A DNA stretch of 64,000 nucleotides from an uncultured Candidatus Saccharibacteria bacterium (GCA_964583675.1 CAZOVH010000002.1:2602-66601); one strand, 5' to 3'; shown: positions 3,611 to 56,689, counted from the first letter of the stretch. Numbers and translations: made by a program. Notes: a model not told the origin generated them from the letters alone.

Positions 3611-3651
3611 CGAGCTCACATTATAGCTCAAAAACCTGCTAGGATACAGAT

Positions 3652-4353
3652 ATGATACGCGTTCGCAAAGCATCCGAACGAGGCCAGTTCGACCACGGTT
3701 GGCTAAAAACCGCGCACACCTTCTCGTTTGCGGGCTACTATGACCCACGCCACATGGGCTTTTCCGCATTGCGAGTGATTAACGAAGACCATATCGCTGG
3801 CGATGGTGGCTTTCCGACGCACGGACATCGGGATATGGAGATCATAACTTATATCATGAAAGGCGAGTTGGCGCACAAAGACAGTATCGGTAACGAGGCC
3901 ACAATTAAGGCTGGCGAAGTACAGTACATGACAGCTGGGAGCGGTGTGATGCACAGCGAATACAACACCTCTAAAACCGAGCCGGTACACTTACTGCAAA
4001 TCTGGCTGGAAGCCGACCAACCAAATCGAAAACCTGGCTATGTTCAAAAAGAATTCTCTCGAGAAGAAAAGCTCAACAAACTTTGCCCGATTGCAACACC
4101 AGCCGGAGAGACGGGCAGTATGCAAGTACACCAGTCTGTTTCGCTTTATGCTTCGGTGCTGGAATCAACGAAAAAAATTAGCTATACATCATCTAGTGAT
4201 CGCTGCCAGTGGGTACAAGTGATCAGTGGAGAGGTGAGCGTTAACGGCTCAAAGCTACTAGCGGGCGACGGGGCAGCTATTACTGAAGAGACAAAAATTA
4301 CGCTATCAGCCAGAAAAGATGCTGAATTTCTACTCTTTGATTTGCCTCAATAA
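3652..4353 (+). CDS. pirin family protein (cupin, quercetin 2,3-dioxygenase-like)
   Basis: N-terminal RG...GWL..HTFSF and HGHRDMEIITYI metal-binding His motif typical of pirins. Confidence 0.85.
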   Translation: MIRVRKASERGQFDHGWLKTAHTFSFAGYYDPRHMGFSALRVINEDHIAGDGGFPTHGHRDMEIITYIMKGELAHKDSIGNEATIKAGEVQYMTAGSGVMHSEYNTSKTEPVHLLQIWLEADQPNRKPGYVQKEFSREEKLNKLCPIATPAGETGSMQVHQSVSLYASVLESTKKISYTSSSDRCQWVQVISGEVSVNGSKLLAGDGAAITEETKITLSARKDAEFLLFDLPQ

Positions 4354-4386
4354 AAAATGGCCACTCCAGGTGAGTGACCATGAACT

Positions 4387-4953
4387 CTAGTCGGAGCTCG
4401 GGTGGGGGAACCGACAATGCCAACCAAAGGCATCATGGATGCGTTCGATATTCCGGTCTACCACGCTCGATGAGAACCCACGCTCTGTCCAGCTCTGAAT
4501 GCAGGCATTCGCGGCAACCTGACACAGCAGACTGCCGTCCTCAACCCTAAGGGAGAGCACGCCAATCGCGTCTAGAAAAACAGCGTCGGCCAACTCTGTG
4601 ACGAGTGTCTCTTGCGCCTGTTTCCACGCACGCATACTATCAAGCCGCGATCCACTGATCCCTTCAGGAGAGAAGGCTTGCTGGATATGCTCAAGCATTT
4701 TGCGCCGCAACATTGGAATTCCGTGCAGGATGCACAATTCTGCCATCAAATAGCAGGTACTGCAGAGCTGAGTAGTGTCGTGTCGTGCCAGTTCGGTCTC
4801 TGGTACTCGTCGATGGAACCAGTTTCGCCAACCCGTACTCCCGAACGCTACAAGATGCGCATCGAAATCTGGATACTGCTCCCTGGGGTATTTCTCTTCC
4901 AGCTGTGCCCGGGCGGCATGCGGCGTTATCAAAGTGCTCTCGGTCTGAGTCAT
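4387..4953 (-). CDS. hypothetical protein in second GC-richer segment
   Basis: 188-aa ORF, elevated GC vs neighbours, His/Cys-rich; family not recognised. Confidence 0.45.
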   Translation of the reverse strand: MTQTESTLITPHAARAQLEEKYPREQYPDFDAHLVAFGSTGWRNWFHRRVPETELARHDTTQLCSTCYLMAELCILHGIPMLRRKMLEHIQQAFSPEGISGSRLDSMRAWKQAQETLVTELADAVFLDAIGVLSLRVEDGSLLCQVAANACIQSWTERGFSSSVVDRNIERIHDAFGWHCRFPHPSSD

Positions 4954-5015
4954 CGCTTACTCCATTGGTCGAGTTGACAGCTATTTTGCTATATAATTGT
5001 AAATTTGTCAATTAT

Positions 5016-5678
5016 TTAGTCGACGTCTGTCATCTCGCGCAATTTCGCCAAATTTATTTCAAACCCAGATTTGTGGTTACGAAATAGGCCAGATTTTGCA
5101 GGCTTGAGTACGCCACGCTTAGTCAGCTGACGCACCTGAACCGTCATTGTCTCGCGAGTGGTTCCAACCATACTGGCAAGCTGGGCGTGCGAAAGTGTGA
5201 AGGGGAGCGTAACTGTGCCCTCGGAAAGCTCCTGTCCGAAGCGCTGCACCAAAAGGGCGAGCATATTTATTAATTTCACATCCGCCTTGGCCTGCAAAAT
5301 ATTATCGAGCGTCTGTGCTAGCTCATCATTGCGCGTCATAAGGTAGCGCACCAAGCCGAAGAGCGCGGCCGAATCTTTTTCTAACTGCTTCTCGAGCGAT
5401 TTTGCTTCTAAGATTCGCACTTTGCCATCAGTCATAGCTTCGTAATAATACCTGTGGGTAACATCATTAAATAACGCGGCCTCCAAATTCATCACATCGC
5501 CAGGCCCAAGGATGGTAATCAATTTCTCATCACCATCGTCGGCAATGGTGTAGGTCTTCACAAAACCATCAGTAATAAAGAGAACATCCTCACCGGCTTC
5601 GCCCTGATGCAGCAGAACATCAGTACGTTTGTATTCTTGCTCGGGCTGATTCATAAAAAACGCGCGCATGTGCTTCAT
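5016..5678 (-). CDS. Crp/Fnr family transcriptional regulator
   Basis: cNMP-binding beta-roll region plus C-terminal HTH (SHAQLASMVGTTRETMTVQVRQL). Confidence 0.8.
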   Translation of the reverse strand: MKHMRAFFMNQPEQEYKRTDVLLHQGEAGEDVLFITDGFVKTYTIADDGDEKLITILGPGDVMNLEAALFNDVTHRYYYEAMTDGKVRILEAKSLEKQLEKDSAALFGLVRYLMTRNDELAQTLDNILQAKADVKLINMLALLVQRFGQELSEGTVTLPFTLSHAQLASMVGTTRETMTVQVRQLTKRGVLKPAKSGLFRNHKSGFEINLAKLREMTDVD

Positions 5679-5749
5679 GCCATGATTATCTCATTAAATG
5701 CCCTCTGGACGCTAGGCAAACACGAAAATTAGCCGTACAATTAAATCCT

Positions 5750-7537
5750 ATGAACGAACTTATTAAAATCCTCAAATTCTCCTCAAAACTCAAATGGTAC
5801 TACGCTGGCATCGCAATTTTGGTGGTAGTACTTGCTTTACTCAACCTCGTTGTTCCGTTTCTTACCAAGAACCTTGTGGACCTCATCACATCGTACTCGC
5901 AAGGAAACCCTGTTTCTTTCACCCAAGCACTTCCAGCTCTCAGTCTAATGCTCATAGCTTCACTCGTTGTAGCGCTACTTTCAAATGTGAATGGCTATCT
6001 GGGCGATATTATGTCGCAAAAGCTCAACACGCATCTTTCAACCAAGTACTACGAACACCTCATGAACTTGCCAATCGAATATTATGACTCTGAGCAAACA
6101 GGAAAAATCACCTCTCGCTTGGAGCGCTCAATTTCGAGCTTGTCACAACTTATGAATGCATTGGCAAACAATTTTGTGCAGTTCTTCCTTACTACTATCG
6201 TTACCCTAGTGGCGATCGCGATTTACTCATGGCCGGTTGCCTTACTGCTAGTCGTAATTTTTCCTACATATATCTGGATTACACATCTTTCAAGCGCTGC
6301 TTGGCAGAAAAAACAAGGCGACATCAATAAAACGCTCGATATCGCCAATGGCAGATTCGTTGAATCGATAGGGCAAGTGCGCGTAGTTAAGTCCTTTGTG
6401 CGCGAGATAGGCGAACTTGCCGACTTCCGCAGACGTCGCCAAAAGATCGAGTCTGTATCTCGCGAACAGTCCCGCGAGTGGCACGCCTATGACTTGGTGC
6501 GCCGGTTGGTATTGGGCGTAGTCTTTTTTGCTATTTTCGCCGTCATAGTCTGGCAGGCGCTCGAAGGTCAGTATTCAGTCGGTACCGCGGTCTTGCTTAT
6601 TACGCTAGCAAATCAAGCCCAATTCCCACTGTTTGGCTCCAGCTTTATTATTGAGGGTATCCAGCGAGCTCAAGCAGACAGTAAGGACTACTTTAAGGTA
6701 ATGGAGAAAAAGCCAACTATTCTCGATGAACCAGACGCAAAGACACTCAAGATCGACGGCGGAGAGGTGCGCTTTGAACACGTTTCGTTTGGCTATGAAA
6801 ACGGCAGCCAAGTCCTCAACGACGTGAGTTTTACTATTCCAGCCCATAGCAAAATTGCGCTTGTTGGTGAATCTGGAGAAGGTAAGTCTACCCTCGCGAA
6901 TCTCATTGTGCGCTTTTACGAAGCCAATGCTGGGACCATCACTATCGACGGCACACCAATCACCGATGTAACCCAAGCCAGCCTGCGCAAGGGGATAGGT
7001 ATTGTGTTCCAGGACCCTTCACTATTTTCTGGGACTATCGAAGACAATATTACCTACGGACTCAACCGTCGATACACACAAGAAGAGCTAGGAGAAGCCG
7101 CCAAGCTTGCGAATGCTGCAGATTTTATCGCCAAGCTAGAAAAAGGCTACAAAACCCAAGTGGGCGAGCGAGGCATTAAACTCTCTGGTGGCCAAAAACA
7201 ACGCATTATTATCGCCCGCGCCCTGCTGAAGAATCCTCCAATCCTGATACTAGACGAAGCTACCAGCTCGCTAGATGCTAAAGCCGAATCACAAGTGCAG
7301 CAAGCTCTGGAGCGTCTGATGAAGGGGCGTACCACTATCATTATCGCGCACCGACTGAGTACGATCTCGCACGTCGACATGATTATTGGTTTGCGCGGCG
7401 GCAAAATTGCCGAATCAGGCAGTCCCGATGAGCTGGCACACAAAAAGGGTGGTATTTACGCAGAGCTCTTGGAGCTCCAGACAGCTGGCGCCAAAGTAGC
7501 CAAGAAGAAGCTACAAAAATTTGATATCGCTGCCTAG
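5750..7537 (+). CDS. ABC transporter ATP-binding/permease fusion protein (MsbA-like exporter)
   Basis: Six-TM N-domain; Walker A GESGEGKST, signature LSGGQKQR, Walker B ILILDEATS. Confidence 0.9.
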   Translation: MNELIKILKFSSKLKWYYAGIAILVVVLALLNLVVPFLTKNLVDLITSYSQGNPVSFTQALPALSLMLIASLVVALLSNVNGYLGDIMSQKLNTHLSTKYYEHLMNLPIEYYDSEQTGKITSRLERSISSLSQLMNALANNFVQFFLTTIVTLVAIAIYSWPVALLLVVIFPTYIWITHLSSAAWQKKQGDINKTLDIANGRFVESIGQVRVVKSFVREIGELADFRRRRQKIESVSREQSREWHAYDLVRRLVLGVVFFAIFAVIVWQALEGQYSVGTAVLLITLANQAQFPLFGSSFIIEGIQRAQADSKDYFKVMEKKPTILDEPDAKTLKIDGGEVRFEHVSFGYENGSQVLNDVSFTIPAHSKIALVGESGEGKSTLANLIVRFYEANAGTITIDGTPITDVTQASLRKGIGIVFQDPSLFSGTIEDNITYGLNRRYTQEELGEAAKLANAADFIAKLEKGYKTQVGERGIKLSGGQKQRIIIARALLKNPPILILDEATSSLDAKAESQVQQALERLMKGRTTIIIAHRLSTISHVDMIIGLRGGKIAESGSPDELAHKKGGIYAELLELQTAGAKVAKKKLQKFDIAA

Positions 7538-7613
7538 CATAAGTACTTTGAGATTGTCTGAAATTAGGTCTACAATACTACTAGACAATAACTAAGTGTA
7601 GGAGAATCTCATT

Positions 7614-41844: not shown

Positions 41845-41921
41845 AGGGGTGTAGCTCAGCTGGCTAGAGCGTCGGTCTCCAAAACCGAAGGCCGCGGGTT
41901 CGATTCCTGCCACCCCTGCCA
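41845..41921 (+). tRNA. tRNA-Trp (anticodon CCA)
   Basis: Cloverleaf read manually: acceptor AGGGGTG/CACCCCT, D-arm GCTCAGCTGGCTAGAGC, anticodon stem TCGGT/ACCGA loop CTCCAAA, T-loop TTCGATT, encoded CCA. Confidence 0.85.
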
Positions 41922-45133: not shown

Positions 45134-45209
45134 TGGAGCCCGCGAAGGGACTCGAACCCATAACCTACGGTTTACAAAACCGTTGCTCTACCAATTGAGC
45201 TACGCGGGC
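45134..45209 (-). tRNA. tRNA-Thr (anticodon UGU)
   Basis: Reverse complement folds: acceptor GCCCGCG/CGCGGGC, D-arm GCTCAATTGGTAGAGC, anticodon stem ACGGT/ACCGT loop TTTGTAA, T-loop TTCGAGT (one U-U mismatch in T-stem), CCA encoded. Confidence 0.75.
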
Positions 45210-45572
45210 TGGTGCAGCATCCTAGCCGAAGTTAGAACTTTGCTACTCAACTATTCTATAACCTAACCTGATATGGCGCAACAGATTATTTGTACCCCCT
45301 ACCCTTTCCTATATATTGAATGATATCTTTCAATTACCATTATCCTATATCGGTAAAGTAGACTAGCTTATTGTGTATGTTTTTATATGTAGTTGTGCTA
45401 AGTAGCCACTTTCATATTTTGTTATGTTTTGTTAGGTTTTTTGAGGTTATATGTGCCATACGTAATTGAGGATATTAATAATCAAAATAGATTGAAGATT
45501 AGAACTATATTCAAACTTGAAAGGTAGGTTGATAACAAGACTATCAATCATATCGCTATTCTAAAAGATACC

Positions 45573-45794
45573 TTACCTCTTAGAATTTTTTAGGGCATTT
45601 ATTTGCTTCTGCAAGCTTTCTAGCTCTTCTTTAATATTTTCAATATCATCCTCTATACTTTCCTGGTCACCACCAAGCAACCTGACTGCCTCCTCTAGCT
45701 TTACGTCTGCTCGTGCATTATTAGTGAGGTTTTGATCAGTTTTATATAGCCAAATAACCAATAAAACGATTACTACTGCCAATACGAACTCCAT
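45573..45794 (-). CDS. hypothetical small membrane-anchored coiled-coil protein (island cargo)
   Basis: N-terminal TM LAVVIVLLVIWLY then acidic coiled coil. Confidence 0.4.
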   Translation of the reverse strand: MEFVLAVVIVLLVIWLYKTDQNLTNNARADVKLEEAVRLLGGDQESIEDDIENIKEELESLQKQINALKNSKR

Positions 45795-45894
45795 TTAAAA
45801 CTCCTTTTTATTATGGGTACCTAATTGTAATCATCACTACTCAAACCTCATCCGTTGGTCAACTTCCATCTATATAATAACTACAGAGCCGTAG

Positions 45895-46461
45895 CTACAG
45901 TGCACTCTCCATAACTTTTAGCATTTCCTGCTGCTGGGTCGCAGTATAGTTGCTAGATACACGCAAAACTACATTACCATTCACCTTATAAGCGCCTGCA
46001 CTAATTGCCCCTGTCTGGAATTGTTCAAGATATTCACCCCTTGTTGCTGCATCTGCCCCAGAAGCAAATACTTCTATTGTGCCACCAGCATCTGTCCCAT
46101 AATTATCCTTACTGATGTCTATTTGGTTTCCATTCTCGTCGACAGGCTGATAGCCAGTACGTGTGTCATAGAAGCTCCCAGCGTATTGATACTCACCCTT
46201 TTTACCAAGTAAGTTGTTTGAGTCTGTAGCCTCAGTTACAACATAAACAGATTGAACTGTTGGGGTTTCAGCTTTTACTTTATCTAATACATCTTGTACT
46301 AATTCATTACCAGTCTTATTTTCTGCCTCGTTTTGAGTTTGATCTGTAGTTACAGAGCGAGGTTGCACGCTATTATTATTTGTATTGAAGTAGTACATCC
46401 CCGCGACCGCAGCTACAACTACCACCAAAACTACCACGCCTACTAGTACTTTCTTATTCAT
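45895..46461 (-). CDS. hypothetical secreted/membrane-anchored protein (island cargo)
   Basis: N-terminal TM/signal anchor VLVGVVVLVVVVAAVAGMYYF; Thr/Asn/Gly-rich ectodomain. Confidence 0.5.
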   Translation of the reverse strand: MNKKVLVGVVVLVVVVAAVAGMYYFNTNNNSVQPRSVTTDQTQNEAENKTGNELVQDVLDKVKAETPTVQSVYVVTEATDSNNLLGKKGEYQYAGSFYDTRTGYQPVDENGNQIDISKDNYGTDAGGTIEVFASGADAATRGEYLEQFQTGAISAGAYKVNGNVVLRVSSNYTATQQQEMLKVMESAL

Positions 46462-46562
46462 ACAACACTCCTATAATTTACAATTTCATTGCTTACTCTA
46501 TCATGCATGATTTTCTTTTCAAATATCTACTGCATTCTAATCACCAATATACTAAGGTCGAA

Positions 46563-47240
46563 TTAATATGACTCACAGCCATATCCATCTCCATCTCTAT
46601 CAAAGCGATGCTTATCGACACCGATAACAGTTACGCTGAAACCAATGTCTCCACAATCGAGATCGTATGAAACATTCGGGACACAGGGACTGTAGTTTGG
46701 ATCACAATTTCCCGCTGGTACTTGAGCTTTGGGCTGTGTCGCTGGCTGCTGGGTAACTGGGGCTGGCGGTGCTTGAGGAGTAGGAGTTGCAGCTGGCGTT
46801 ACTACAGCTGCAACCTTAGTACCCTTAGCAATACGCTTTACCGAGGGCTGCTCTACAATGACCTCACCTACTCTTTCTTTTTCTTCTTCAACTCCACCCG
46901 ATATTAGTACTCTATATGTAACTGCTTTCTTCCCTTCACGACCTTCCTGTAAAACTTTCGTTGTGCCTTCTTCTAGGTTCGAGTCATCTACTGTTTCAGT
47001 CGCATATCCAACTGTCTCGAAATCTGTATATTCCTTAAAACTATCTGGAGAAGACCCTGCGAACATACCTAGATAGAAAAGCATCATGATGGCAGACAAT
47101 ACGCTCAACGATACTTTTTGCCAAGTTGGCCGCAAAGACACGATCCATAAATACCAGAGAATAAATGGCGGGAAAAAGACGATCGCAGCTATGAACCCTG
47201 CAGGTCGTAAGTACCAAGGTCTTTTACTTTGAGCGTTCAT
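46563..47240 (-). CDS. membrane protein with G5 domain and C-terminal Excalibur calcium-binding domain
   Basis: Two N-terminal TM; G5-like LEEGTTKVLQEGREGKKAVTYRVL...VKRIAKGTK; Pro-rich linker; Excalibur motif DRDGDGYGCE. Confidence 0.55.
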   Translation of the reverse strand: MNAQSKRPWYLRPAGFIAAIVFFPPFILWYLWIVSLRPTWQKVSLSVLSAIMMLFYLGMFAGSSPDSFKEYTDFETVGYATETVDDSNLEEGTTKVLQEGREGKKAVTYRVLISGGVEEEKERVGEVIVEQPSVKRIAKGTKVAAVVTPAATPTPQAPPAPVTQQPATQPKAQVPAGNCDPNYSPCVPNVSYDLDCGDIGFSVTVIGVDKHRFDRDGDGYGCESY

Positions 47241-47953
47241 CTATCTACCTTTCCGTTACAGGTGTTTGCAGCCCAAAGCCCTCTAGTAGCATCTTTTGCC
47301 TGTTGCTCCAAGCTTATAAAATCATTTAGCTTAGCAGTAGGATATTTTCTGTACGCAAAAGCATAACCTTCCTCGACCATTACTGCATTGACTAAAGTTC
47401 CATCGGCTAGATATACATACCGCAACAAGCGACCGTATTTGTCTTTATCGCCCTGGCTCTCATCTACTACCAATACAACTGGCTTACCCTCTACGAGCTC
47501 TTTCATCTTGCGAGAAGCTTCAAACCCATAGCACTGCACTGGCTTCCGAGGATCTTTTGTCTCTGGAGTGTCGATTCCTAGCAACCTAACCTTATAGGTT
47601 ACGCCATCTGAGACCACTGTTATCGTGTCGCCATCCACAACGTTTTTGACGACCGCAGAAGAATCGGGCAGAGACTGATCAATTATCGCCTTGTCCTGCT
47701 TCTCTAAGACTTGGCTACTTGCCTCTTTCTCTAGACTAGCTATAGGTTGAGATGATATGGATTTATCATCTGGGGTTTCATATTCATCAGGGTCAGTAGT
47801 AAGAGAGCTGGCGTACAGTTGATTCATTTGAGCAACTTCTCTGGGTTGAAGCACAAAACTATACCATATGGTGTATAGTGTCATAACTAATATTAAGTGA
47901 AATACCAACATTAGCCATATTGTTGCTTTATGCTTTTTCCGACCTCGTGCCAT
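47237..47953 (-). CDS. membrane-anchored thermonuclease (staphylococcal nuclease homolog)
   Basis: N-terminal TM; SNase core VVDGDTITV...VRLLGIDTPE and downstream Arg/Glu/Tyr catalytic region. Confidence 0.75.
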   Translation of the reverse strand: MARGRKKHKATIWLMLVFHLILVMTLYTIWYSFVLQPREVAQMNQLYASSLTTDPDEYETPDDKSISSQPIASLEKEASSQVLEKQDKAIIDQSLPDSSAVVKNVVDGDTITVVSDGVTYKVRLLGIDTPETKDPRKPVQCYGFEASRKMKELVEGKPVVLVVDESQGDKDKYGRLLRYVYLADGTLVNAVMVEEGYAFAYRKYPTAKLNDFISLEQQAKDATRGLWAANTCNGKVDR

Positions 47954-48096
47954 TAATTGAATTCTACCCCTATATACTCAAATCGTATACTAAATGCGTT
48001 ATTGGTATAGCCACCCGCAGTTAAAGATACTCCTTCCGCTCCGCTTATATATAGACTGGAGGAGTAGCTATTAAGAGCTGCTGTGACGGGGGGTGT

Positions 48097-48582
48097 TCAT
48101 CTGCAGGTAGTTGTCCAGCCCCCAAACGGATTATAGGTGGAGTTACAGGTTGTGGACGGTACAGGTGATGGACTAGGCAAGGGTTGTAGTTGTAATGGAG
48201 CCGTGTAACTCGGTTGGGCTTGAGAAGTGCTGGTTGGTTTAGTGTTTGCATCATTTAGTAGCTGCCAGTAACCCTTCTTAAGGTCGGCCAGCTCCGTACC
48301 ATATTTGGCAATTAAATTATTCCTAGCATCCACTGTCTTTATTAATTGTTCGTTCTCCGCTGTCGCCTTTTCTTTTTCCGCAGTTATCTTAGATAGCTGG
48401 TCCAGTCCAGTCTTCTGGAGTCTGACAGTGTATACCGATAAACCCAACAAAGATACTAGTAATACATAAAAGCCGATCTGGTAAAATTTTGTTGTCCTGC
48501 TAGATTTTCTGGGATCCGAATTCCTTTTCAGCTCGGCAACTTCCGCCTCAAGTTTTTCAATATTTACTCGTTGGCCCTTCAT
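48097..48582 (-). CDS. hypothetical membrane protein with flanking coiled coils and Pro/Ser/Thr-rich Cys-pair tail
   Basis: Central TM FYQIGFYVLLVSLLGLSVYTV; heptad-rich segments; tail TTCNSTYNPFGGWTTTCR. Confidence 0.45.
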   Translation of the reverse strand: MKGQRVNIEKLEAEVAELKRNSDPRKSSRTTKFYQIGFYVLLVSLLGLSVYTVRLQKTGLDQLSKITAEKEKATAENEQLIKTVDARNNLIAKYGTELADLKKGYWQLLNDANTKPTSTSQAQPSYTAPLQLQPLPSPSPVPSTTCNSTYNPFGGWTTTCR

Positions 48583-48657
48583 AGCGCGTTCTCTCTAGTG
48601 CTTGATAAATGTAAATAAAAAATATTGGATATATACGACATTCGCATATGAACACTG

Positions 48658-49263
48658 CTACTCATCCAGCGACTCACTCAGCTTTTTTAACCCTTTTTTA
48701 TAGTATTTCATTTGGGTGTCTTGTGGCAGTTTTTGAATATCATCATCAGAGATATTAATTTTATTCACCTCTCGAAATCCTAGGCGAATAACGCTCATCT
48801 TCGCTAGGTCTTCATCGTTATGCGGACCGCTTTCTGTAGCAGTATTTTTCTTATCTATCAAGCCAGTCGAAGAGTTGCTAATACGACTCTTTGGCATCTT
48901 GGCTAACTGCTTGTTTTTATTGTAATACGCTACCCAACTAAGTAATGGCAATACCCAAATCGAGAAGCCACCCAAAAGAAATAAAATCATATTTGCTATT
49001 GCTGCAATGTTCTCCATCAGAGCTCGTGAATCAGCTGATTCACTACTATTTTGACCAAGTATAAAGTTGATTAGAGCATACAGTGCCACTGTAAGGCCAA
49101 ACATTATAAAAGGAGACCACAACCACCTATACATGCTGGTTACGAGCCTCTTTCTATCGGGTTGCATCTTAGAGAGTTGGCCAGCCGTGAAAGCCAGCTG
49201 AAACAATAAGAATATGTTTACGAAGAGCGCAACTATAATCATGGGGAAAGAGGAGTTTTCCAT
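48658..49263 (-). CDS. hypothetical multi-TM protein, short member of island paralog family (single C-terminal KLGF..VN..DI.K.P...KYY..GL repeat)
   Basis: N-terminal membrane domain and C-terminal repeat both align to 50565..51647. Confidence 0.5.
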   Translation of the reverse strand: MENSSFPMIIVALFVNIFLLFQLAFTAGQLSKMQPDRKRLVTSMYRWLWSPFIMFGLTVALYALINFILGQNSSESADSRALMENIAAIANMILFLLGGFSIWVLPLLSWVAYYNKNKQLAKMPKSRISNSSTGLIDKKNTATESGPHNDEDLAKMSVIRLGFREVNKINISDDDIQKLPQDTQMKYYKKGLKKLSESLDE

Positions 49264-49323
49264 GCACTGAATTATACACCACCAAGATCTAAGCGCTGAA
49301 TGCTATCTATCTACAAACAGCTT

Positions 49324-49677
49324 TCACTTGTTGATCTTTTTGCGATACTCGATTTGGTGATATAAAGCTACCAGAGTATAAAAAAACCCACCGATAAGGA
49401 AAGCGAAGCCGCCTGCCCAGAAAAATGAGATTACAATTGCAATTGCAAAAGCACTTAATCCAACCTTCAATTCCCTATTAGCTTTTTCCTTAATTAATGA
49501 AGGATTATCCGTTTCTTCTTTTTTCGTTTCATTGGTGACAATACTAATATACTCAAGGGCCTTCTCTTTTGATCCAGCCTGTTTCTTAATTGCTCTGACT
49601 ATGCTTCCTTTTGAATAAAACTGTGATTTTAAACTTTTTATTTTCTCTTCGATCTCTGGTGGCACTGATTGATTCAT
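49324..49677 (-). CDS. hypothetical protein with C-terminal double TM hairpin
   Basis: Soluble Lys/Glu-rich N-domain then GLSAFAIAIVISFFWAGGFAFLIGGFFYTLVALY. Confidence 0.4.
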   Translation of the reverse strand: MNQSVPPEIEEKIKSLKSQFYSKGSIVRAIKKQAGSKEKALEYISIVTNETKKEETDNPSLIKEKANRELKVGLSAFAIAIVISFFWAGGFAFLIGGFFYTLVALYHQIEYRKKINK

Positions 49678-49694
49678 GATGTAATCCTTACCTC

Positions 49695-50120
49695 CTATTC
49701 ACCCTTACGAAATGTAGAAAACTCACCCAGGTTTGCCAATATATCTCTATCTATCGATTCGATAAATGCACCGAACATCTTTTTATCATATCCGTAGTAT
49801 TCAGACTCTACTACCAACGTAAGGTCCTCAGGGTCACCATCATCCTTTGACTCTTCATAAAACCATTTACTATATACTGCTTGATTAACCGTATTTATTG
49901 CATTAAAAAAATCTTTACTTCCTAGCGCCTTAGGGTTGAAGCCCGACCATCTCATCGTGACAGTAAGCATATCGCCATTAAAATTTAATAGATAGGAAGC
50001 TCCACGGTCTCGCTCAGCAAAATACAATGATCCTTTATTTTTGCCTATATCTTCGGTTTCAAAACCTAAAAACTCCATGTGTTCAAGAATCTTGTCTTTG
50101 TTGCTTGCCTTATCTGTCAT
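49695..50120 (-). CDS. hypothetical cytoplasmic protein (weak YbjN-like resemblance)
   Basis: Only soluble protein in cassette; start chosen at MTDKA to avoid overlap; family call tentative. Confidence 0.35.
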   Translation of the reverse strand: MTDKASNKDKILEHMEFLGFETEDIGKNKGSLYFAERDRGASYLLNFNGDMLTVTMRWSGFNPKALGSKDFFNAINTVNQAVYSKWFYEESKDDGDPEDLTLVVESEYYGYDKKMFGAFIESIDRDILANLGEFSTFRKGE

Positions 50121-50568
50121 TACCTTGTCCTTTCTTAATCGTGTCCCAGTCACGCAATTTTTCACTTGGGCGGATAGTTTTTAGATTATCATTTTTTACA
50201 GCTTCGGAAGAGTGCTTTTTGCTGGACGCCTGAAAGTCATCTTGTCCCTCTAAATAATCTCTACGCTCGTCCCCTGCTAAATAACTTTCAATAGCCTCCG
50301 CCTTAAGCTTATTAACACTAAATATGATCATTATCCCCGCCCATAAGCTACCATACATGAACGTAGTAGAAAATGCAGAAACGACTATTAGTACAAGGCT
50401 AGACCATACAATTGGGACTATAATAACTGGCCAATTCATTTTTTTTATCTCCCCCGTTCTAAGAAGTTTCCTTCTAAGGGGCAGTGTTGCAAATATACTT
50501 CCCAATATATTTGACCATAAGAATAAACCGACGACCCAACCAATAAAACCTATTAATAGACCTGTCAC
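50110..50568 (-). CDS. hypothetical membrane protein (3-4 TM) with charged C-terminal tail
   Basis: ORF with hydrophobic N-terminal two-thirds. Confidence 0.4.
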   Translation of the reverse strand: MTGLLIGFIGWVVGLFLWSNILGSIFATLPLRRKLLRTGEIKKMNWPVIIVPIVWSSLVLIVVSAFSTTFMYGSLWAGIMIIFSVNKLKAEAIESYLAGDERRDYLEGQDDFQASSKKHSSEAVKNDNLKTIRPSEKLRDWDTIKKGQGNDR

Positions 50569-51647
50569 TTCAGCATCCTCAATCCAGCTTGATAATATTT
50601 ATCTAGTTCCTTTTCTGGCATTTTTTCGATATCTTCAGTAGCTACAGAAAAATTATTCACATGCTTAAATCCCAGTTTAATTATTTCTAGCTTTACCCGT
50701 AACTCATCTCCACTGATCTTTTCTTCATTTGTCGGGCTTAGCGCGTGTTTTCTATAGTTACTAACCCTCATGCCTTCTTCCAGGTATGATTCTAGCTCTC
50801 TCTTGGAAAGATTTTCTAATACCTCTGGAAAAACATTCTTTACATTGTGACGATGCGAATAACCGCGCCTAATTAGCATTTCCTTCTCATCCACTGTCAA
50901 GCCTGCAGCCGCTGCCCTATCCAGCTTAGCTACTCTCTTTTCAAGAGCTGAGGCATCCAATTTTTTGATTTTATGAACTGAGTGTATGGCAATTATCGTC
51001 CACACTAAAACTATCAAGGGTATAATTCCTCCCGAAACTAGAATTGTAGACATTAACAAAATCCACAGTTTCGCTAGCAAGAATTGATTATTGCTGCGAA
51101 TTGAACGTCCAAGCATTATGAAGTAGGTTCCTAGAAGCAAGATAATAATAAATGCAACTAAATAGCTCGGCAAATCACCCCCTTCAGGACCTGAAAGCAA
51201 CAATAACCCTGACGATATAATAATTATTGCAAACCCCATTTGATAACTTCCATCTCCCGCCCGAGTTATCAAACGTAAATAACGCTCCACCTTTTTTTCT
51301 TCTGGTGATAATGCCCTTATAGGCTGTTTCAAGGGCTCATTCAGTTCACGTAGTGCCTGGTAGGTTACATACCAGCTATAAAACGGCAATATAAATGCCG
51401 CTATGAAGCCCAGGAGAAACAGTATTGTGTTCAGAATTGTGCTGATGTTCGCACCCAAATCACTATCAGCATCAATGACCGCATTGGTGAAGCCATATAA
51501 TAACAAGCAAGACAAAACGATAATTATTGGAAGCCAAAGCCAGAAGTAAGCCTTTTTCAATCGTTTTCGCTGAATTGGGTTTTTCTTCTTCTGTACTAAA
51601 GACCTAAACTCTAGAACTACAAGGATTATCAGATTTATTAAAAACAT
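50565..51647 (-). CDS. hypothetical multi-TM protein, long member of island paralog family (two copies of C-terminal ~35-aa repeat)
   Basis: RKRLKKAYFWLWLPIII... aligns with 48658..49263 N-domain; repeats GYSHRHNVKNVFPEVLENLSKRELESYLEEG and GFKHVNNFSVATEDIEKMPEKELDKYYQAGL. Confidence 0.5.
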   Translation of the reverse strand: MFLINLIILVVLEFRSLVQKKKNPIQRKRLKKAYFWLWLPIIIVLSCLLLYGFTNAVIDADSDLGANISTILNTILFLLGFIAAFILPFYSWYVTYQALRELNEPLKQPIRALSPEEKKVERYLRLITRAGDGSYQMGFAIIIISSGLLLLSGPEGGDLPSYLVAFIIILLLGTYFIMLGRSIRSNNQFLLAKLWILLMSTILVSGGIIPLIVLVWTIIAIHSVHKIKKLDASALEKRVAKLDRAAAAGLTVDEKEMLIRRGYSHRHNVKNVFPEVLENLSKRELESYLEEGMRVSNYRKHALSPTNEEKISGDELRVKLEIIKLGFKHVNNFSVATEDIEKMPEKELDKYYQAGLRMLK

Positions 51648-51749
51648 TCTAGTTATTCCTACATCTAACTATATACCCAGTAAACCAAGCATACAATTAT
51701 ACTTGATATGGTGTTAAGACCAGCCTTAAGCTGATATCATTGCTTCGAG

Positions 51750-52340
51750 ATGACTCCACAGCCCAATAAACAGTATATGCCAAGCTTAAAGTACAGGAGC
51801 GATTGGCACAGGTATTTGGTCTTCAATGACCCCGAGTTTATTAATGCTTATAATTCGATTGATCAAGACGATAAGCAAAGTATGTATCAGAAATCTTGTG
51901 CATTCGAGCTGCTTGCCAGATCTTTCGCACTCACGACTTCCGATATGAACATTTTTAAATTATCTAAATCTATATACATAGAGGGTAAAACCACGGGAGC
52001 TAACTTAGAGTTTGATCCGATGTCTGGAAAGTATTCAATTGTTTTTCAGCCAGATACTCCTCTAGTCGAAATACAGGATGAGCTAAACAAATTTAAAAAC
52101 TTGAGAGACTCACTCTTCCCGATTAAGCAAACTAAGCGAAAGCCACCACACGACCCTGCACTTATATATGCCATCTTCAAAGCTCGGCAACAAAAGCTAA
52201 CTTTCAATAAAATTTTCGAGCTATATGAGAACAGCACACTGCCCTACTATGGCGGCGACAATCAAAAGTATCAGAGCCGTGAAGATCTCGAGAAGTACTA
52301 CGACAACAATAAGCCAATAAGAACTTTAAACAAATCTTAG
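51750..52340 (+). CDS. hypothetical protein (196 aa), first plus-strand gene of island replication/integration module
   Basis: Clean ORF, Lys/Tyr-rich, no family recognised. Confidence 0.4.
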   Translation: MTPQPNKQYMPSLKYRSDWHRYLVFNDPEFINAYNSIDQDDKQSMYQKSCAFELLARSFALTTSDMNIFKLSKSIYIEGKTTGANLEFDPMSGKYSIVFQPDTPLVEIQDELNKFKNLRDSLFPIKQTKRKPPHDPALIYAIFKARQQKLTFNKIFELYENSTLPYYGGDNQKYQSREDLEKYYDNNKPIRTLNKS

Positions 52341-52478
52341 ATTGGTTATACAACTAGTTTTCCACCTGCTTTAATGGCATCTGAGATGACATTGGTAGTC
52401 CCCTGAGAAATAGTCATCTCCTCGGGGGACTACCTATTAACAATAGGTATCAGACGTAGCCTAGCCACGGGGAAAGCT

Positions 52479-52688
52479 ATGAAACTTAGCGATGATAATA
52501 TCACTCAGCTTCAACACATACTGAAAAGCCAAAACGATATTGATGCAACCGACTTGGAGGCTCAGCAAATTGGCCTGGCAGTAATGCGCTTCGTGTTAGC
52601 CAAGCATCTAAATACTTTCAAGGATACCTCGGAGGAAAAGAGAGATGAAAATAACGCCGTTGAGCATCCTACAAAGCCAACATATTGA
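52479..52688 (+). CDS. hypothetical small acidic protein (69 aa) overlapping start of primase gene
   Basis: ORF only; could be regulator/excisionase-like, unverified. Confidence 0.25.
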   Translation: MKLSDDNITQLQHILKSQNDIDATDLEAQQIGLAVMRFVLAKHLNTFKDTSEEKRDENNAVEHPTKPTY

Positions 52689-54765
52689 GTACCAAGAAAT
52701 ACAAAACGAGTTAGTCATTAAATGTCAGTTTAGTGATTGCGACGATGACAGTAGGGGCAAAGAAGCTCATATGTATGTAAATAAAGATTCAGGCGCATAC
52801 TACTGTCATAAGTGCTATGCAAAGGGCGGCTTGCAAGATCTATTGGAGCACTTCGGTATAGATGCTAAATCCATTGGGAGTGATCCTAAGAATGACCTGA
52901 AACAAACCGCAATCAAATACCACCTCGGCCTGCCTCCGTATATAAAAGATTACTTAGTGAAAGATAGGCTTCTTCATGATGAAGAGATCAATGATCGATT
53001 ACTTGGTTTTATGGTAGACCAATCTGGAGTTGGCTGGATTACCATTCCTGTGTTTAGTCAGCATAACGATATATTATTCATCAAAATGAGAAAAGACCCA
53101 TCGTTGCCCAATTCCATTAGCCCCAAATATAAGTCGTCTGGTGGATCAGCAGCCATATATAATGCGCAAATCATCAATGATCAGCCAGAACGACTAGTTA
53201 TCTGTGAGGGTGAATTTGACTGCATGCTTTTGTCATCCCTTGGCGTTCCAGCGATTAGCTCAACTGCTGGCGCAGGTACCTTTAAGGATCAGTGGGTAGA
53301 CCAACTGTCATTCGTACGTGAGTTCTATGTAATTATGGATAATGATGACCCAGGAAGAAAAGGAGCTGAAGCCTTAATTCAGAAGCTACATGCAGCGCAT
53401 CCCGACGCATCGATTATGAACGTCCAGTTGCCGTCCGTTTTAGGGAAAGGTGGAGATATTACTGACTTCATCAAGCATGAACTTGGAGATATCGATGATT
53501 TACTCAGTCCAGATAGTAAGCTTGTGAGTCTCGCAGCTGGATCAAGACCGATTAACCCCTCCTCTTTTAGTGAAATGAGTCTAGATGAGCTAGTTGAGAT
53601 ATTATCCATGACTATCAAATTCGATCGAGAAAACAAACTTATAACTTTTTTCGCATGCCTATCAGCTTACACCCTCTCAGATCAGATCAATGTTAGCTAT
53701 AACGCACCAAGCTCATCGGGCAAAACATATATCGTCAACGAAGTGGCTAAACTATTTCCAGATGCCGATAAAATCGAATCAAATGGTGCAAGCCCAACTT
53801 CCTTTTTCCACGGTTCAGGCAAAATCGATGAGAAAAGAAATGCAAAAATCATTAACCTCTCTCGGAAAATCCTTATCTTCTACGAACTCCCAAACCCAAT
53901 ACTGCAATCTAAACTGCGATCCGTTTTATCCCATGACAGCTGGGAGATAAATCACCGTATTACCAATAAAGACAAAAAGGGTGCCCATCGAGTCGAACAT
54001 ATAATTCTTGAGGGCTTCCCTGCCACTATATTTTGCTCTGCCAATATGCGGCTAGACGAACAAGAAGCAACCAGAGCAATACTCTTAAGCCCTGAAGTAA
54101 GCCAGGAGAAGTTGAGCGAAGCTGTGCATCTACAAGCTCTAAAAGCCGCAAACCCCGAAAAGTACCATACAGACCTTGACTCCGATCCAAGACGGAAGTT
54201 ACTTAAAGATCGCATACTCGCGATCAAGCGTGAGCGAGTAGATCATGTAACTCTAAACCCCTCAAGTACTAGAGAAATAGAAAAACGTTTTATGGCGAGC
54301 TTCCATAGATTTAAGCCAAGACACATGAGAGATGTTGGGCATTTGATACAACTCATTAAAGCTATTACCCTACTGAATATTTGGCACAGACAAGATTCTG
54401 ATGGGAAAATTGTCGTGTCACAAATAGACATTGAACAGGGATTAAACCTTTGGATGCACTATCGAGAAAGCCAGGATCTTAATATTAGCCCTATTGCCAC
54501 CTCATTCTACAAGCAATATATATTACCAGCATATTTAGAAAAACGTGGAGACAATTATGAGTTCAGTGAAGGTGTCACACGGCAAGAAGTATGTAAATAC
54601 TATCTCAAAATTGAGCGCGCTCCATACAACGATGAGTACCTAAGAAAACAAATCCTGCCCCAGCTTGAGAATAGCGGACTAGTATCGCAAGAACAGCCGC
54701 AGAGCGGCGATAAGCGTACAAAGCACATCATTCCTAAGTGGTTCTTCCGCGATGAAGATATATAG
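52645..54765 (+). CDS. DnaG-type primase (CHC2 zinc finger + TOPRIM) fused to C-terminal P-loop NTPase domain (replication initiator of the element)
   Basis: Zinc finger CQFSDC...YYCHKCYAKGG; TOPRIM LVICEGEFD and IMDNDDPGRKG; Walker A NAPSSSGKTYIV in C-terminal half. Confidence 0.7.
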   Translation: MKITPLSILQSQHIEYQEIQNELVIKCQFSDCDDDSRGKEAHMYVNKDSGAYYCHKCYAKGGLQDLLEHFGIDAKSIGSDPKNDLKQTAIKYHLGLPPYIKDYLVKDRLLHDEEINDRLLGFMVDQSGVGWITIPVFSQHNDILFIKMRKDPSLPNSISPKYKSSGGSAAIYNAQIINDQPERLVICEGEFDCMLLSSLGVPAISSTAGAGTFKDQWVDQLSFVREFYVIMDNDDPGRKGAEALIQKLHAAHPDASIMNVQLPSVLGKGGDITDFIKHELGDIDDLLSPDSKLVSLAAGSRPINPSSFSEMSLDELVEILSMTIKFDRENKLITFFACLSAYTLSDQINVSYNAPSSSGKTYIVNEVAKLFPDADKIESNGASPTSFFHGSGKIDEKRNAKIINLSRKILIFYELPNPILQSKLRSVLSHDSWEINHRITNKDKKGAHRVEHIILEGFPATIFCSANMRLDEQEATRAILLSPEVSQEKLSEAVHLQALKAANPEKYHTDLDSDPRRKLLKDRILAIKRERVDHVTLNPSSTREIEKRFMASFHRFKPRHMRDVGHLIQLIKAITLLNIWHRQDSDGKIVVSQIDIEQGLNLWMHYRESQDLNISPIATSFYKQYILPAYLEKRGDNYEFSEGVTRQEVCKYYLKIERAPYNDEYLRKQILPQLENSGLVSQEQPQSGDKRTKHIIPKWFFRDEDI

Positions 54766-54948
54766 GAATGCATGGTGGGTACCCTTACCGAAAGATAAAT
54801 AAACGGATATAATGGCTATGTTGAAACACCCAGTAATTATGCGTGAAGTCTTTTTATTTCCGCTCGTTAAGGGCGGCTTGGTACGGAAAGTGGCTTTGTG
54901 CTACTGGATGTTTCAACAGCCGAGCCGTCCTTTTTGATTGGAGAAATT

Positions 54949-56586
54949 ATGAGTAATTTAAAGTATATCGCTTATGTACGCAAGTCTACCGAAGATGAAG
55001 AACGGCAAGTTCTATCCAGAGCTGCTCAACGAGACAAGATTAATGAAATATTCGGCGAACTTACTATAATTGACTACCTCGATGAGAGTAAAAGTGCGTT
55101 TGAGCCAGGGAAAAGGCCTATTTTTGATCAAGTTTTGGCCAAGTTAGATTCTGGCGAAGCTGATGGGATAATTGCTTGGCATCCAGATCGACTTTCACGA
55201 AACGCCATAGATGCTGCTGCCATAAGCCATCGTATTAGCAAAGGAACAATTAAGGATCTGAAGTTCGCGAGCTTCAGCTTTGACAACTCACCAGAAGGCA
55301 TCATGATGCTTCAGATGACGATGTCTCAATCTCAATACTTTTCAGCAAAGCTGAGTAAAGATATTAGACGAGGCAATGAAAAAAAGCGTCAGCTAGGTGG
55401 CTTAACAGGAAAAGCTATGGAGGGCTACCTGAATGATCGCATGAATAAGACAACCATTATTGATCCAGCTCGATTCCCGTTAATCCGTAAGGCGTTTGAC
55501 CTATATTTAACTGGAGAATATAGCGTCCAAGCAATTCTACGTATACTCAATGATGAATGGGGCTATACGACCCTTAAGCGAAAAAGGACTGGAGGGGGCC
55601 CACTCTCTCGAACATCTCTATACAATATATTTCGAAACGTGCGATACGCTGGACTAATACCAGACCCTTACGACCCAGAAAAGCTGTATAAATCTGAGTA
55701 TCCAGCAATGATTACGATTGAAGAGTATGACCAAGTTCAGCTACTGCTAGGTAGAAAAGGACTTCCTCGATTGGTAGCAAAGAAAGAATTTGCACTACGT
55801 GGGCTAATTCGCTGTGGTGAATGTGGATGCAGCATTACCGCTCAAACCAAAAAGAAGAAAATGAAGTGCGGGACGATAAAGCCTTATACGTACTATCATT
55901 GTACTGGTAAACGACCTGGCTGCAGCCAAAAAAGTATATATGTAAGAGAAGAGCAGCTATATAAGGAGCTGACAATTCTACTAGATAAATATCAGCTAGA
56001 CGAACGTCTATTTGACTGGGCCCTAGAGGCCTTTAAGGATATGGCGGCAGCTGAAGTGACTGAAAGAAATCATGTGCAATTGATACAGGACAATAAAATC
56101 CATGATACTCAACGTCAACTGGATAAACTGCTAGATTTAGCAACCAAAGAACTTATAACTACTGAAGAATATTCACTGAAAAGCGAACAGTTGAAAGCAG
56201 CACTAAATACACTTCAGAAAGATCAAACAAATACTGCAGCCCGCACTAAGAACTGGTATGAGTTTGCTACAAATACCCTACACACACTCTGCGATGCTGA
56301 AAATAGGTTCATTAACGGAGATATAGTGGTAAAGAAAGAAATACTACTGGCTATTGGTCAGAACCCTACCTTATTGGATGGAAAATTGCATATCACACCA
56401 GTAAAATGGTTGAATCCAGTCGCAAACTCAACTGAGCATATTACAAAGGAGCTTAATAAGGTTAGAACCTTATCTCTACAGATGCAAAAAGCCTCCGAAG
56501 AGGCTGTTCGTCATCAATGGTGCAGGGGGAGGGATTCGAACCCCCGAAGGCATAAAGCCGACAGATTTACAGTCTGTTGCGTTTGA
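54949..56586 (+). CDS. large serine recombinase (resolvase/invertase catalytic domain + recombinase domain + zinc ribbon)
   Basis: N-terminal YVRKSTEDEERQ with catalytic Ser, DGIIAWHPDRLSRN; Cys4 CGECGC...CTGKRPGC; SD GGAG 7 nt before ATG at 54949; 3' end overlaps tRNA-Tyr on opposite strand. Confidence 0.8.
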   Translation: MSNLKYIAYVRKSTEDEERQVLSRAAQRDKINEIFGELTIIDYLDESKSAFEPGKRPIFDQVLAKLDSGEADGIIAWHPDRLSRNAIDAAAISHRISKGTIKDLKFASFSFDNSPEGIMMLQMTMSQSQYFSAKLSKDIRRGNEKKRQLGGLTGKAMEGYLNDRMNKTTIIDPARFPLIRKAFDLYLTGEYSVQAILRILNDEWGYTTLKRKRTGGGPLSRTSLYNIFRNVRYAGLIPDPYDPEKLYKSEYPAMITIEEYDQVQLLLGRKGLPRLVAKKEFALRGLIRCGECGCSITAQTKKKKMKCGTIKPYTYYHCTGKRPGCSQKSIYVREEQLYKELTILLDKYQLDERLFDWALEAFKDMAAAEVTERNHVQLIQDNKIHDTQRQLDKLLDLATKELITTEEYSLKSEQLKAALNTLQKDQTNTAARTKNWYEFATNTLHTLCDAENRFINGDIVVKKEILLAIGQNPTLLDGKLHITPVKWLNPVANSTEHITKELNKVRTLSLQMQKASEEAVRHQWCRGRDSNPRRHKADRFTVCCV

Positions 56587-56604
56587 CCGCTTCGCTACCC
56601 CTGC
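56518..56604 (-). tRNA. tRNA-Tyr (anticodon GUA), type II with long variable arm
   Basis: Reverse complement: acceptor GCAGGGG/CCCCTGC, anticodon loop CTGTAAA, long variable arm CGGCTTTATGCCTTCG, T-loop TTCGAAT, CCA encoded. Confidence 0.85.
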
Positions 56605-56614
56605 ATGCTTGATC

Positions 56615-56689
56615 TGGAGCCCAAACCGAGGATTGAACTCGGGACCTCTTCCTTACCATGGAAGCGCTCTACCACTGAGCTATTTGGGC
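56615..56689 (-). tRNA. tRNA-Thr (anticodon GGU)
   Basis: Reverse complement: acceptor GCCCAAA/TTTGGGC, D-arm GCTCAGTGGTAGAGC, anticodon stem CTTCC/GGAAG loop ATGGTAA, T-arm CCGAG-TTCAATC-CTCGG, CCA encoded. Confidence 0.85.

Follow-up and report, generated by a model that had tools for sequence, protein, structure and literature searches.

This study concerns a stretch of 64,000 nucleotides from an uncultured Candidatus Saccharibacteria bacterium (GCA_964583675.1, CAZOVH010000002.1:2602-66601), which is called the window and to which all coordinates refer, and an 11.3-kb island in it that carries a gene for a large serine recombinase (LSR) and lies between two tRNA genes. Numbers beginning with L or P denote loci and proteins retrieved from databases. 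Four tRNA genes were located in the window with ARAGORN: tRNA-Trp (41845-41921, plus strand), tRNA-Thr(UGU) (45134-45209, minus strand), an intact tRNA-Tyr(GUA) (56518-56604, minus strand) and tRNA-Thr(GGU) (56615-56689, minus strand), and the last three, which lie in the region of interest, were confirmed by Rfam. tRNA-Thr(GGU) is the first gene of the host tRNA operon, whereas tRNA-Thr(UGU), which once directly followed tRNA-Tyr in the same operon, is now found downstream of the island. The LSR gene (54949-56586, plus strand) encodes 545 residues in its integrated form, and its last 22 codons are antisense to tRNA-Tyr.

The 3' end of tRNA-Tyr, CTGCACCA (56518-56525, minus strand), which consists of four acceptor-stem bases, the discriminator A and the encoded CCA, is repeated at 45210-45217 on the minus strand (TGGTGCAG on the plus strand), where it directly adjoins tRNA-Thr(UGU). 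The original prediction of an orphan tRNA-Tyr 3' end at this place was therefore correct as to its sequence; it had been drawn over 45205-45217, and the orphan part proper is 45210-45217, the first 5 nucleotides belonging to tRNA-Thr. The two copies are 11,308 bp apart, and their identity ends after exactly 8 nucleotides, the next base being G at the orphan and C in the tRNA. CTGCACCA occurs five times in the window against 1.9 expected, and at least five times in 4 of 100 shuffles; the 8-mer alone is not significant, and what gives it weight is where it lies, together with the comparative evidence.

Chromosomal sites without the island (attB) were searched for in one genome per species with a pattern consisting of CTGCACCA, up to 30 nucleotides and the 5' end of tRNA-Thr(UGU). 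Two records were returned, L004 (a metagenome-assembled genome of Patescibacteria) and L005 (Candidatus Saccharibacteria), and in both the order is tRNA-Thr(GGU), 10 nucleotides, tRNA-Tyr and, without a spacer, tRNA-Thr(UGU), with the tRNA-Tyr and tRNA-Thr(UGU) sequences identical to those of the window and their joint at 7573/7574 in L004 and at 7013/7012 in L005. CTGCACCA is present once at each of these sites, as the 3' end of tRNA-Tyr. In blastn alignments L004 matches the window from 64000 to 56518, that is, to the end of tRNA-Tyr, and resumes 8 nucleotides earlier with window position 45217 downwards; the flanks of the window are 76-93% identical to L004 and L005 (82-93% for L005) and overlap by exactly 8 bp. 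A comparison of both junctions with island-free relatives had been proposed to delimit the crossover, and it confines the crossover to this 8-bp overlap; a normal spacer reading CTGCACCA between the two tRNAs, which would have argued against insertion, is not what these relatives carry, since their 8 nucleotides are the end of tRNA-Tyr itself. The integrated element thus delimited by blastn and by the circle junction described below extends from 45218 to 56517 (11,300 bp, plus one extra 8-bp copy of the core), and its GC content is 0.39-0.42, that of the flanks being 0.44-0.49.

The joint at which the element is inserted is exactly the spacer-less one, where a single RNase P cut would make both the mature 3' end of tRNA-Tyr and the 5' end of tRNA-Thr(UGU). 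The same island, with an LSR 98% identical and the same TPR/holB/ribosomal-protein neighbourhood, is found in L091 (ENA k141_584715); because this contig comes from another sample, the insertion is present in more than one population. Three Logan contigs retrieved by exact-protein look-up of a flanking gene (L001-L003) were considered as evidence for the presence or absence of the island and were uninformative, as all of them break 17 nucleotides inside tRNA-Thr(UGU). These three independent contigs start at one base, running from window position 45192 downwards, and the shared break probably reflects a branch of the assembly graph where co-occurring relatives have tRNA sequence in common. The protein of the right flank was not on record in the exact-protein look-up.

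The LSR contains the Pfam domains Resolvase (PF00239, E = 2.6e-20), Recombinase (PF07508) and Zn_ribbon_recom (PF13408), and the R-K-S-T catalytic motif is invariant in 33 relatives. A family profile matches the SPbeta, A118, TP901-1 and phiC31 integrases with an E-value of 1e-10, the match covering positions 7-469 for the SPbeta integrase and 195-353 for the C-terminal domains of A118, and a single-sequence search gave no match to a solved structure in the PDB; the serine integrases studied so far are thus distant from this enzyme, which, as judged from its sequence, has the defining features of a large serine integrase. The longest open reading frame (ORF) starts at GTG 54898 (562 residues), but the ATG that gives MSNLKY... 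(545 residues) is the start in most database copies and in every close relative, and the start is probably ATG 54949, 51 nucleotides downstream of the start first assigned.

The recombinase ORF, which ends at 56586, had been noticed to overlap tRNA-Tyr on the opposite strand. The overlap, of 69 nucleotides, is real, and it is not incidental, since the attachment site of the element (attP) lies in the recombinase ORF. The TGG at 56518-56520 is at once a conserved in-frame Trp codon of the LSR and the antisense of the tRNA CCA. Integration within this reading frame detaches the last 18 codons (17 tail residues and the stop), which are now found at 45213-45266, and the 17 native residues encoded at 45213-45263 are replaced by 21 antisense tRNA-Tyr codons. 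The displaced 3' end of the gene, which in translation reads WCSILAEVRTLLLNYSIT followed by a stop (45210-45266, plus strand), becomes part of the gene again only in the excised circle.

The free element was predicted to join 56517 to 45218 over one copy of the core, with the LSR ORF ending in WCSILAEVRTLLLNYSIT and a stop, and this prediction was tested. The 90% cluster of the window LSR includes P0122 (541 residues) and P0126 (542 residues), both of which have the predicted excised-form tail, with C-termini of the form ...WCSILAEVRTLLLNYSI[A/S] (...RHQWCSILAEVRTLLLNYSIA in P0122 and ...NYSIS in P0126). P0126 is encoded on L093, the NCBI contig JAYRRQ010000030.1 of 11,490 bp, which has a terminal overlap of 141 bp and a primase gene split over its ends, and which is therefore a circle of 11,349 bp. 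Positions 1-2918 of L093 align with window positions 53608-56525 (94.8% identity) and positions 2911-6988 align with 45210-49282 (93.3%), and the two alignments overlap by 8 bp, which are TGGTGCAG. The same 56517-to-45218 junction is present in L094, a JGI metagenome contig. All four attachment sites have thus been recovered for one element, and exactly 8 bp are common to attB, attP and the two junctions, attL and attR.

It is very likely that the island is an LSR-encoding episome inserted at the end of tRNA-Tyr. In this reading, conservative site-specific recombination has joined attP of an 11.3-kb episome, which carries a primase, the LSR and cargo genes, to a chromosomal attB that spans the tRNA-Tyr/tRNA-Thr(UGU) joint of the Saccharibacteria chromosome, with identity between attP and attB limited to TGGTGCAG. 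The 2-bp staggered cut made by the LSR would have to fall inside this 8-bp core, and each junction would therefore retain one copy of it. The copy at 56518-56525 completes tRNA-Tyr (attR) and the copy at 45210-45217 is left as the orphan beside tRNA-Thr (attL), and both tRNA genes are intact. Insertion of an element into the 3' end of tRNA-Tyr, with a second copy of the core at the far junction, had been proposed from the window itself and is now supported by the empty sites L004 and L005 and by the circle L093. The accompanying proposal that the original 3' end was displaced and a replacement supplied holds for at most 8 nucleotides, and no longer copy of the tRNA is present; as the enzyme is an LSR and not a tyrosine integrase, no more than 8 nucleotides are replaced and a longer copy is therefore unneeded.

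With four sites sharing the same 8 bp, chance, a native spacer and a target-site duplication are therefore effectively excluded as the origin of the repeat. The frequency of the 8-mer in the window makes the match by itself weak, as would be expected if it were a coincidence or part of an ordinary spacer or leader of tRNA-Thr(UGU) with the boundary of the island elsewhere; the empty sites have no spacer and show the 8 nucleotides to be the tRNA-Tyr end, while both flank alignments and the circle junction break at exactly 8 bp, which leaves this explanation with almost no probability. A duplication of the target by a DDE-type transposase is hardly more probable: a length of 8-9 bp is common for such duplications, but the unintegrated circles L093, L094, L087 and L022 already hold TGGTGCAG at the junction inside the LSR ORF, no transposase was found among the island ORFs in Pfam and PHROGs scans, no terminal inverted repeats were found at the ends of the island, and the relatives of the element sit at tRNA CCA ends. 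That the island was instead inserted by a tyrosine integrase using a long tRNA-identical attP, with the serine recombinase as a resolvase or invertase passenger, might be expected from the fact that tRNA 3' ends are the typical target of tyrosine integrases and from the description of serine integrases as not known at tRNA genes (PMC4383910, PMC7192596). Nevertheless, the only recombinase in the eight largest or best-placed island ORFs scanned with Pfam is of the serine family, and no tyrosine-recombinase domain was found in these eight, ORFs of less than 100 residues and six of 100-201 residues having been left out of the scan; moreover, attP and attB are identical over no more than 8 bp, the C-terminal domains of an integrase are all present in the LSR, and attP is inside the LSR gene in an arrangement that tracks the tRNA junction in dozens of relatives. 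A tyrosine-integrase island is thus as improbable as a chance match.

The vehicle, as distinct from the mechanism of integration, could also be a defective prophage or a phage satellite, which we consider unlikely, though less so than the preceding explanations. Besides the primase, which resembles phage primase families, only weak PHROG matches were obtained (an Rz-like spanin, E = 1e-3, and a 'virion structural protein', E = 5e-3). Against a phage origin, no capsid, portal, terminase or tail matches were found among the island ORFs in the Pfam and PHROGs scans, only one distant LSR relative was found in IMG/VR (2.9 million contigs), and the relatives are circles of 7-11 kb with replication genes. 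The element is most probably a plasmid-like episome and not a prophage, being found both as a free circle with a primase, its putative replication gene, and in an integrated form.

More than 2,700 relatives of the LSR were found at E <= 1e-10. The best 120 of them are 56-98% identical to it, and all named sources among these 120 are Saccharibacteria or Patescibacteria. The best 120 have the common C-terminal motif ...KVRTxPQQIQKASEEAxRxxW and diverge after it: 75 tails carry the translated antisense T-loop signature ([S/L][N/D] at W+6/W+7), ten are of the attP type (W-x-x-[V/I]-L-x-x-V-R-T), 30 end one to three residues after the W, and five are of other kinds. A metagenome scan gave 80 loci, whose LSRs share 32-74% identity with the query over the best segment, and in 34 of them, as in the window, a tRNA on the opposite strand has its CCA on an in-frame TGG of the LSR, which makes 35 complete junctions. 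These junctions involve tRNAs for 11 amino acids, among them Tyr, Trp, Gly (three isoacceptors), Arg, Met, Ser (three), Gln, Asn, Asp and Pro (three). As far as these predicted junctions indicate, targeting of tRNA ends is the rule for a large serine-integrase clade in small-genome bacteria.

Relatives of the attP type are found on small circles: L087 and L088, from two sequencing runs, represent one 7,010-bp element in two exact circular permutations, the ends of L089 overlap, and the LSR gene of L022 wraps the ends of its contig. Distal direct repeats were also searched for in other integrated relatives, most of whose flanks (6-7.5 kb or less) were too short, and the candidates, which are unvalidated, are an 18-bp repeat in L047 (2284 and 7231), 4.9 kb from tRNA-Gly(CCC), and 9-bp repeats in L019 (1383 and 7609) and L033 (2805 and 7579), 6.2 and 4.8 kb from tRNA-Ser(CGA), respectively; among relatives the core seems to range in length from 8 to 18 bp.

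Some relatives depart from the common pattern. Seven distant ones (L055-L057, L059, L061, L065 and L081; 34-39% identity), with tails reading ...FPxLSG or similar, overlap the 3' end of a tRNA-Gly or tRNA-Pro gene without an encoded CCA, and targeting of tRNA ends may thus extend to hosts whose tRNA genes lack CCA. At L011 (7594) and L024-L026 the tails resemble antisense tRNA (ESN, GSN or YSN at W+5 to W+7) in places where ARAGORN calls no tRNA, perhaps because the tRNA genes there have decayed or contain introns; tRNA genes of Patescibacteria are reported to harbour group I introns (PMC13011429).

For comparison of the attachment sites, all of them were anchored on the T of TGG as position 0. 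A T-loop-like motif, GTTAGAACT (45231-45239, plus strand), lies at +21 to +29 in the P' arm of attP and attL and is a putative motif for the zinc-ribbon domain (ZD). The sequence GTTAGAAC(C/T) or a close variant is found at +21 to +29 in every attP form (the window, L093, L094, L087, L022, L092, L089 and L018), and a related motif is found at these positions in the distant attP-like forms L077 (GTTAGAACC), L079 (GCTCGAACC), L070 (AATCAAACC) and L031 (GTTGCGAAT). In every tRNA-side half-site, the T-loop and T-stem, (A/G)TTCGAACC, are located at +16 to +24. The common TT[A/C]GAACC is therefore at +22 to +29 in attP and at +17 to +24 in the tRNA-side arm of attB, 5 bp further out in attP. Further partial similarity to tRNA-Tyr beyond the 8 nucleotides, for which a search had been suggested, is thus absent in collinear form and present as this T-loop-like motif displaced by 5 bp.

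In A118-type integrases, the ZD motif is located at half-site positions 16-24 in attP and 11-19 in attB (Rutherford et al., PMC3783163). When this numbering is applied, the crossover is placed at about +4 to +6 of the core, within TGGTGCAG, at tRNA positions 70-72. Accordingly, the zinc-ribbon domain of the LSR may read, on the tRNA side, the universal T-loop (TTCGAACC) and, in attP, its mimic (TTAGAACT/C) placed 5 bp further out. As the T-loop is universal, only a few bases of the core would therefore need to match the target, which would explain the use of many tRNAs. We hold this reading of the motif with moderate confidence. A second copy of GGTTAGAACC is present in the LSR coding region (56460-56469, plus strand; codons K-V-R-T), 58 nucleotides upstream of the core and in the orientation of the P'-arm motif, and its DNA is invariant in five aligned attP forms and nearly invariant across closer relatives. 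When the P and P' arms on either side of the core were compared by hand as a possible inverted repeat, they showed weak symmetry only, with about 10 of 23 positions matching, and a symmetric attP is not claimed.

The insertion also bears on the transcription of both tRNA genes. A hairpin resembling an intrinsic terminator, AGCCTC-TTCG-GAGGCT followed by a T run (56485-56505, minus strand), begins 12 nucleotides after the CCA of tRNA-Tyr and is antisense to the KASEEA codons of the LSR. A hairpin is found at the equivalent place in most relatives above about 40% identity, with differing stems (GCCUC/GAGGC, GACUC/GAGUC, CAGCCG/CGGCUG, CAGAGG/CCUCUG and GAGCCUC/GAGGCUC). Among 25 sequences, 88% of the cells are paired against 74.7% in shuffles, and 13 cells change on both sides, a number reached by none of 500 shuffles; the covariation score is 0.354 against 0.133, with every slid register scoring lower. 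The hairpin would terminate the tRNA-Thr(GGU)-tRNA-Tyr transcript, which has been cut off from its downstream sequence, and would also shield the LSR gene from antisense transcription. With moderate to good confidence, it can be regarded as a terminator that the element supplies to the interrupted tRNA operon.

tRNA-Thr(UGU) has been separated by the insertion from the promoter of its operon, a promoter-like site (TTGAAA-17 nt-TAGACT with a TG extension; 56746-56718, minus strand) in a block that is also present in L004 and L005. The best promoter-like match that faces the attL core and tRNA-Thr(UGU) is a putative outward promoter, Pout (TTGCGC-17 nt-TAGAAT; 45253-45281, minus strand). Its position is identical in four diverged elements, the -10 box ending 43 nucleotides before the CCA in each, and all four combine a 17-nucleotide spacer and TAGAAT with the -35 boxes TTGCGC (window), TTGCGT (L087), TTGATC (L022) and TTGCTT (L092). 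On the opposite strand, the -10 box corresponds to the 'YS' codons, which are conserved in tails of the attP form. The proposal of Pout relies on this conserved position across relatives, and with moderate confidence an outward promoter in the P' arm, possibly together with read-through from the co-oriented cargo genes, may restore expression of the displaced tRNA-Thr(UGU). An antisense RNA running from Pout to the terminator was considered as a structured RNA and is not claimed, its predicted fold being no better than those of shuffles (z = -0.75).

Taken together, these features suggest a clade specialized for tRNA CCA ends, in which the universal T-loop would be read by the zinc-ribbon domain, specificity would come from a few core bases at the acceptor end, attP would serve four functions within about 120 bp (as the end of the ORF, the T-loop mimic shifted by 5 bp, the terminator and the outward promoter) and the tail of the recombinase would be swapped on integration. 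This combined reading is offered tentatively, as one that may well fail in some part. A functional role of the tail swap is given low confidence, and conservation of the tail can be explained by constraints at the DNA level alone.

Several observations weigh against these interpretations. The circle L093, which was obtained from another sample, matches the island at 93-95% identity and not completely, and the exact attP of the window, a predicted 21-mer, was not found in viral contigs. No ZD-like motif is recognizable in the P arm or the B arm, and the half-site model fits one side only. The control for the hairpin covariation can be inflated by kinship among the sequences. A generic scan of the left end of the island gave no minus-strand promoter at threshold, Pout falling below it with 8 of 12 matches to the sigma-70 consensus, and the fold predicted for the antisense RNA mentioned above, no more stable than in shuffles, also counts against the model. 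No recombination directionality factor was identified; to our knowledge, such factors have no common signature.

The remaining content of the element is in keeping with an episome. A DNA primase of 706 residues (52645-54765, plus strand), with a match to Pfam Toprim_2, to phrog_47 (3e-26) and to phrog_239 (primase/helicase) and thus possibly with a helicase part, is its replication module. The cargo block (45573-51647, minus strand), identified by ORF calls and domain scans, encodes small membrane or secreted proteins and reads towards tRNA-Thr; domain scans place in it a G5-domain protein (46563-47240, minus strand) and a staphylococcal-type nuclease (47237-47953, minus strand). Two membrane proteins of the block (48658-49263 and 50565-51647, minus strand) have a similar N-terminal membrane region and C-terminal segment by eye (...IRLGFREVNKINISDDDIQKLPQD..YYKKGLKKL and ...IKLGFKHVNNFSVATEDIEKMPEK..YYQAGLRML), and look like paralogous cargo genes without a family assignment. 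A 25-nucleotide inverted repeat, 80% complementary (45292-45316 and 54758-54782), brackets the LSR gene in the circular form and may be an operator; in L022, L092 and L087, the putative outward promoter has a similar TATATAGGA...GGGTA block upstream of it.

The enzyme shares with the large serine integrases (phiC31, Bxb1, A118/LI, TP901-1, SPbeta SprA, the SCCmec Ccr recombinases and XisF) the combination of Resolvase, Recombinase and zinc-ribbon domains, short attachment sites with a small common core and an integrase gene beside attP; a putative recognition motif, seen in one arm, would be offset by 5 bp between attP and attB as in the A118-type enzymes (PMC3783163). Those enzymes use sites inside protein-coding genes, whereas the present one targets the very 3' terminus of a tRNA gene; it differs further in that attP lies within the integrase ORF, so that the C-terminus changes on integration, and in that the putative ZD motif is the universal T-loop. 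The island resembles the 'Islander'-type tRNA islands in having an intact tRNA at one end, a displaced 3' fragment at the other and the integrase beside the intact tRNA, with the function of the target kept; those islands use tyrosine integrases and duplicate tens of bp of identity, whereas a serine integrase and 8 bp are found here.

An attP in a coding sequence is also known from the integration-dependent immunity of mycobacteriophages, in which attP lies in the coding sequence of the repressor, the integrase is of the tyrosine type and the change of the tail has a regulatory role. The C-terminus is remodelled in both systems, but in the present element it is that of the recombinase itself, with a putative functional consequence.

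As regards tRNA genes as targets, it has been stated that only tyrosine integrases are known to target tDNAs (PMC4383910), and 14 of 297 serine-integrase elements were placed at t(m)RNA genes in a survey that described this as not previously reported and called for proof (PMC7192596). A minority of the tycheposons of Prochlorococcus carry an LSR (bioRxiv 10.1101/2020.12.28.424599). Tycheposons resemble the present elements in being small, in having a site-specific integrase and a primase/replication module, in integrating at tRNA genes and in occurring also as circles; they differ in that the present hosts are Patescibacteria, an LSR is here the rule and not the exception, and no conjugation or packaging genes are recognized here, and a layout with attP in the ORF is not described for tycheposons in the text searched. 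Within the incomplete coverage of our literature search, there was no account of a serine-integrase clade dedicated to tRNA CCA ends, of attP in a serine-integrase ORF at a tRNA end or of such elements in Saccharibacteria. Both the chemistry of the element and its logic are well known, unlike the class of target, the overlap of attP with coding sequence and the validity of the rule across the family.

In conclusion, integration at tRNA genes has so far been treated as the domain of tyrosine integrases, with serine integrases rarely reported there, and the present junctions describe a family in which a large serine integrase appears to do this regularly. For practical purposes, the predictable attB at tRNA ends and a specificity that apparently shifts with a few core bases may provide orthogonal or retargetable integrases for genome engineering. 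If the tail swap is functional, it could serve as a built-in sensor of the integrated and free states of the element. The proposed terminator and outward promoter show a possible way to make insertion into a spacer-less tRNA operon harmless to the host, and the elements as a whole describe a type of mobile element for the Candidate Phyla Radiation (CPR, Patescibacteria), the mobilome of which is poorly known.

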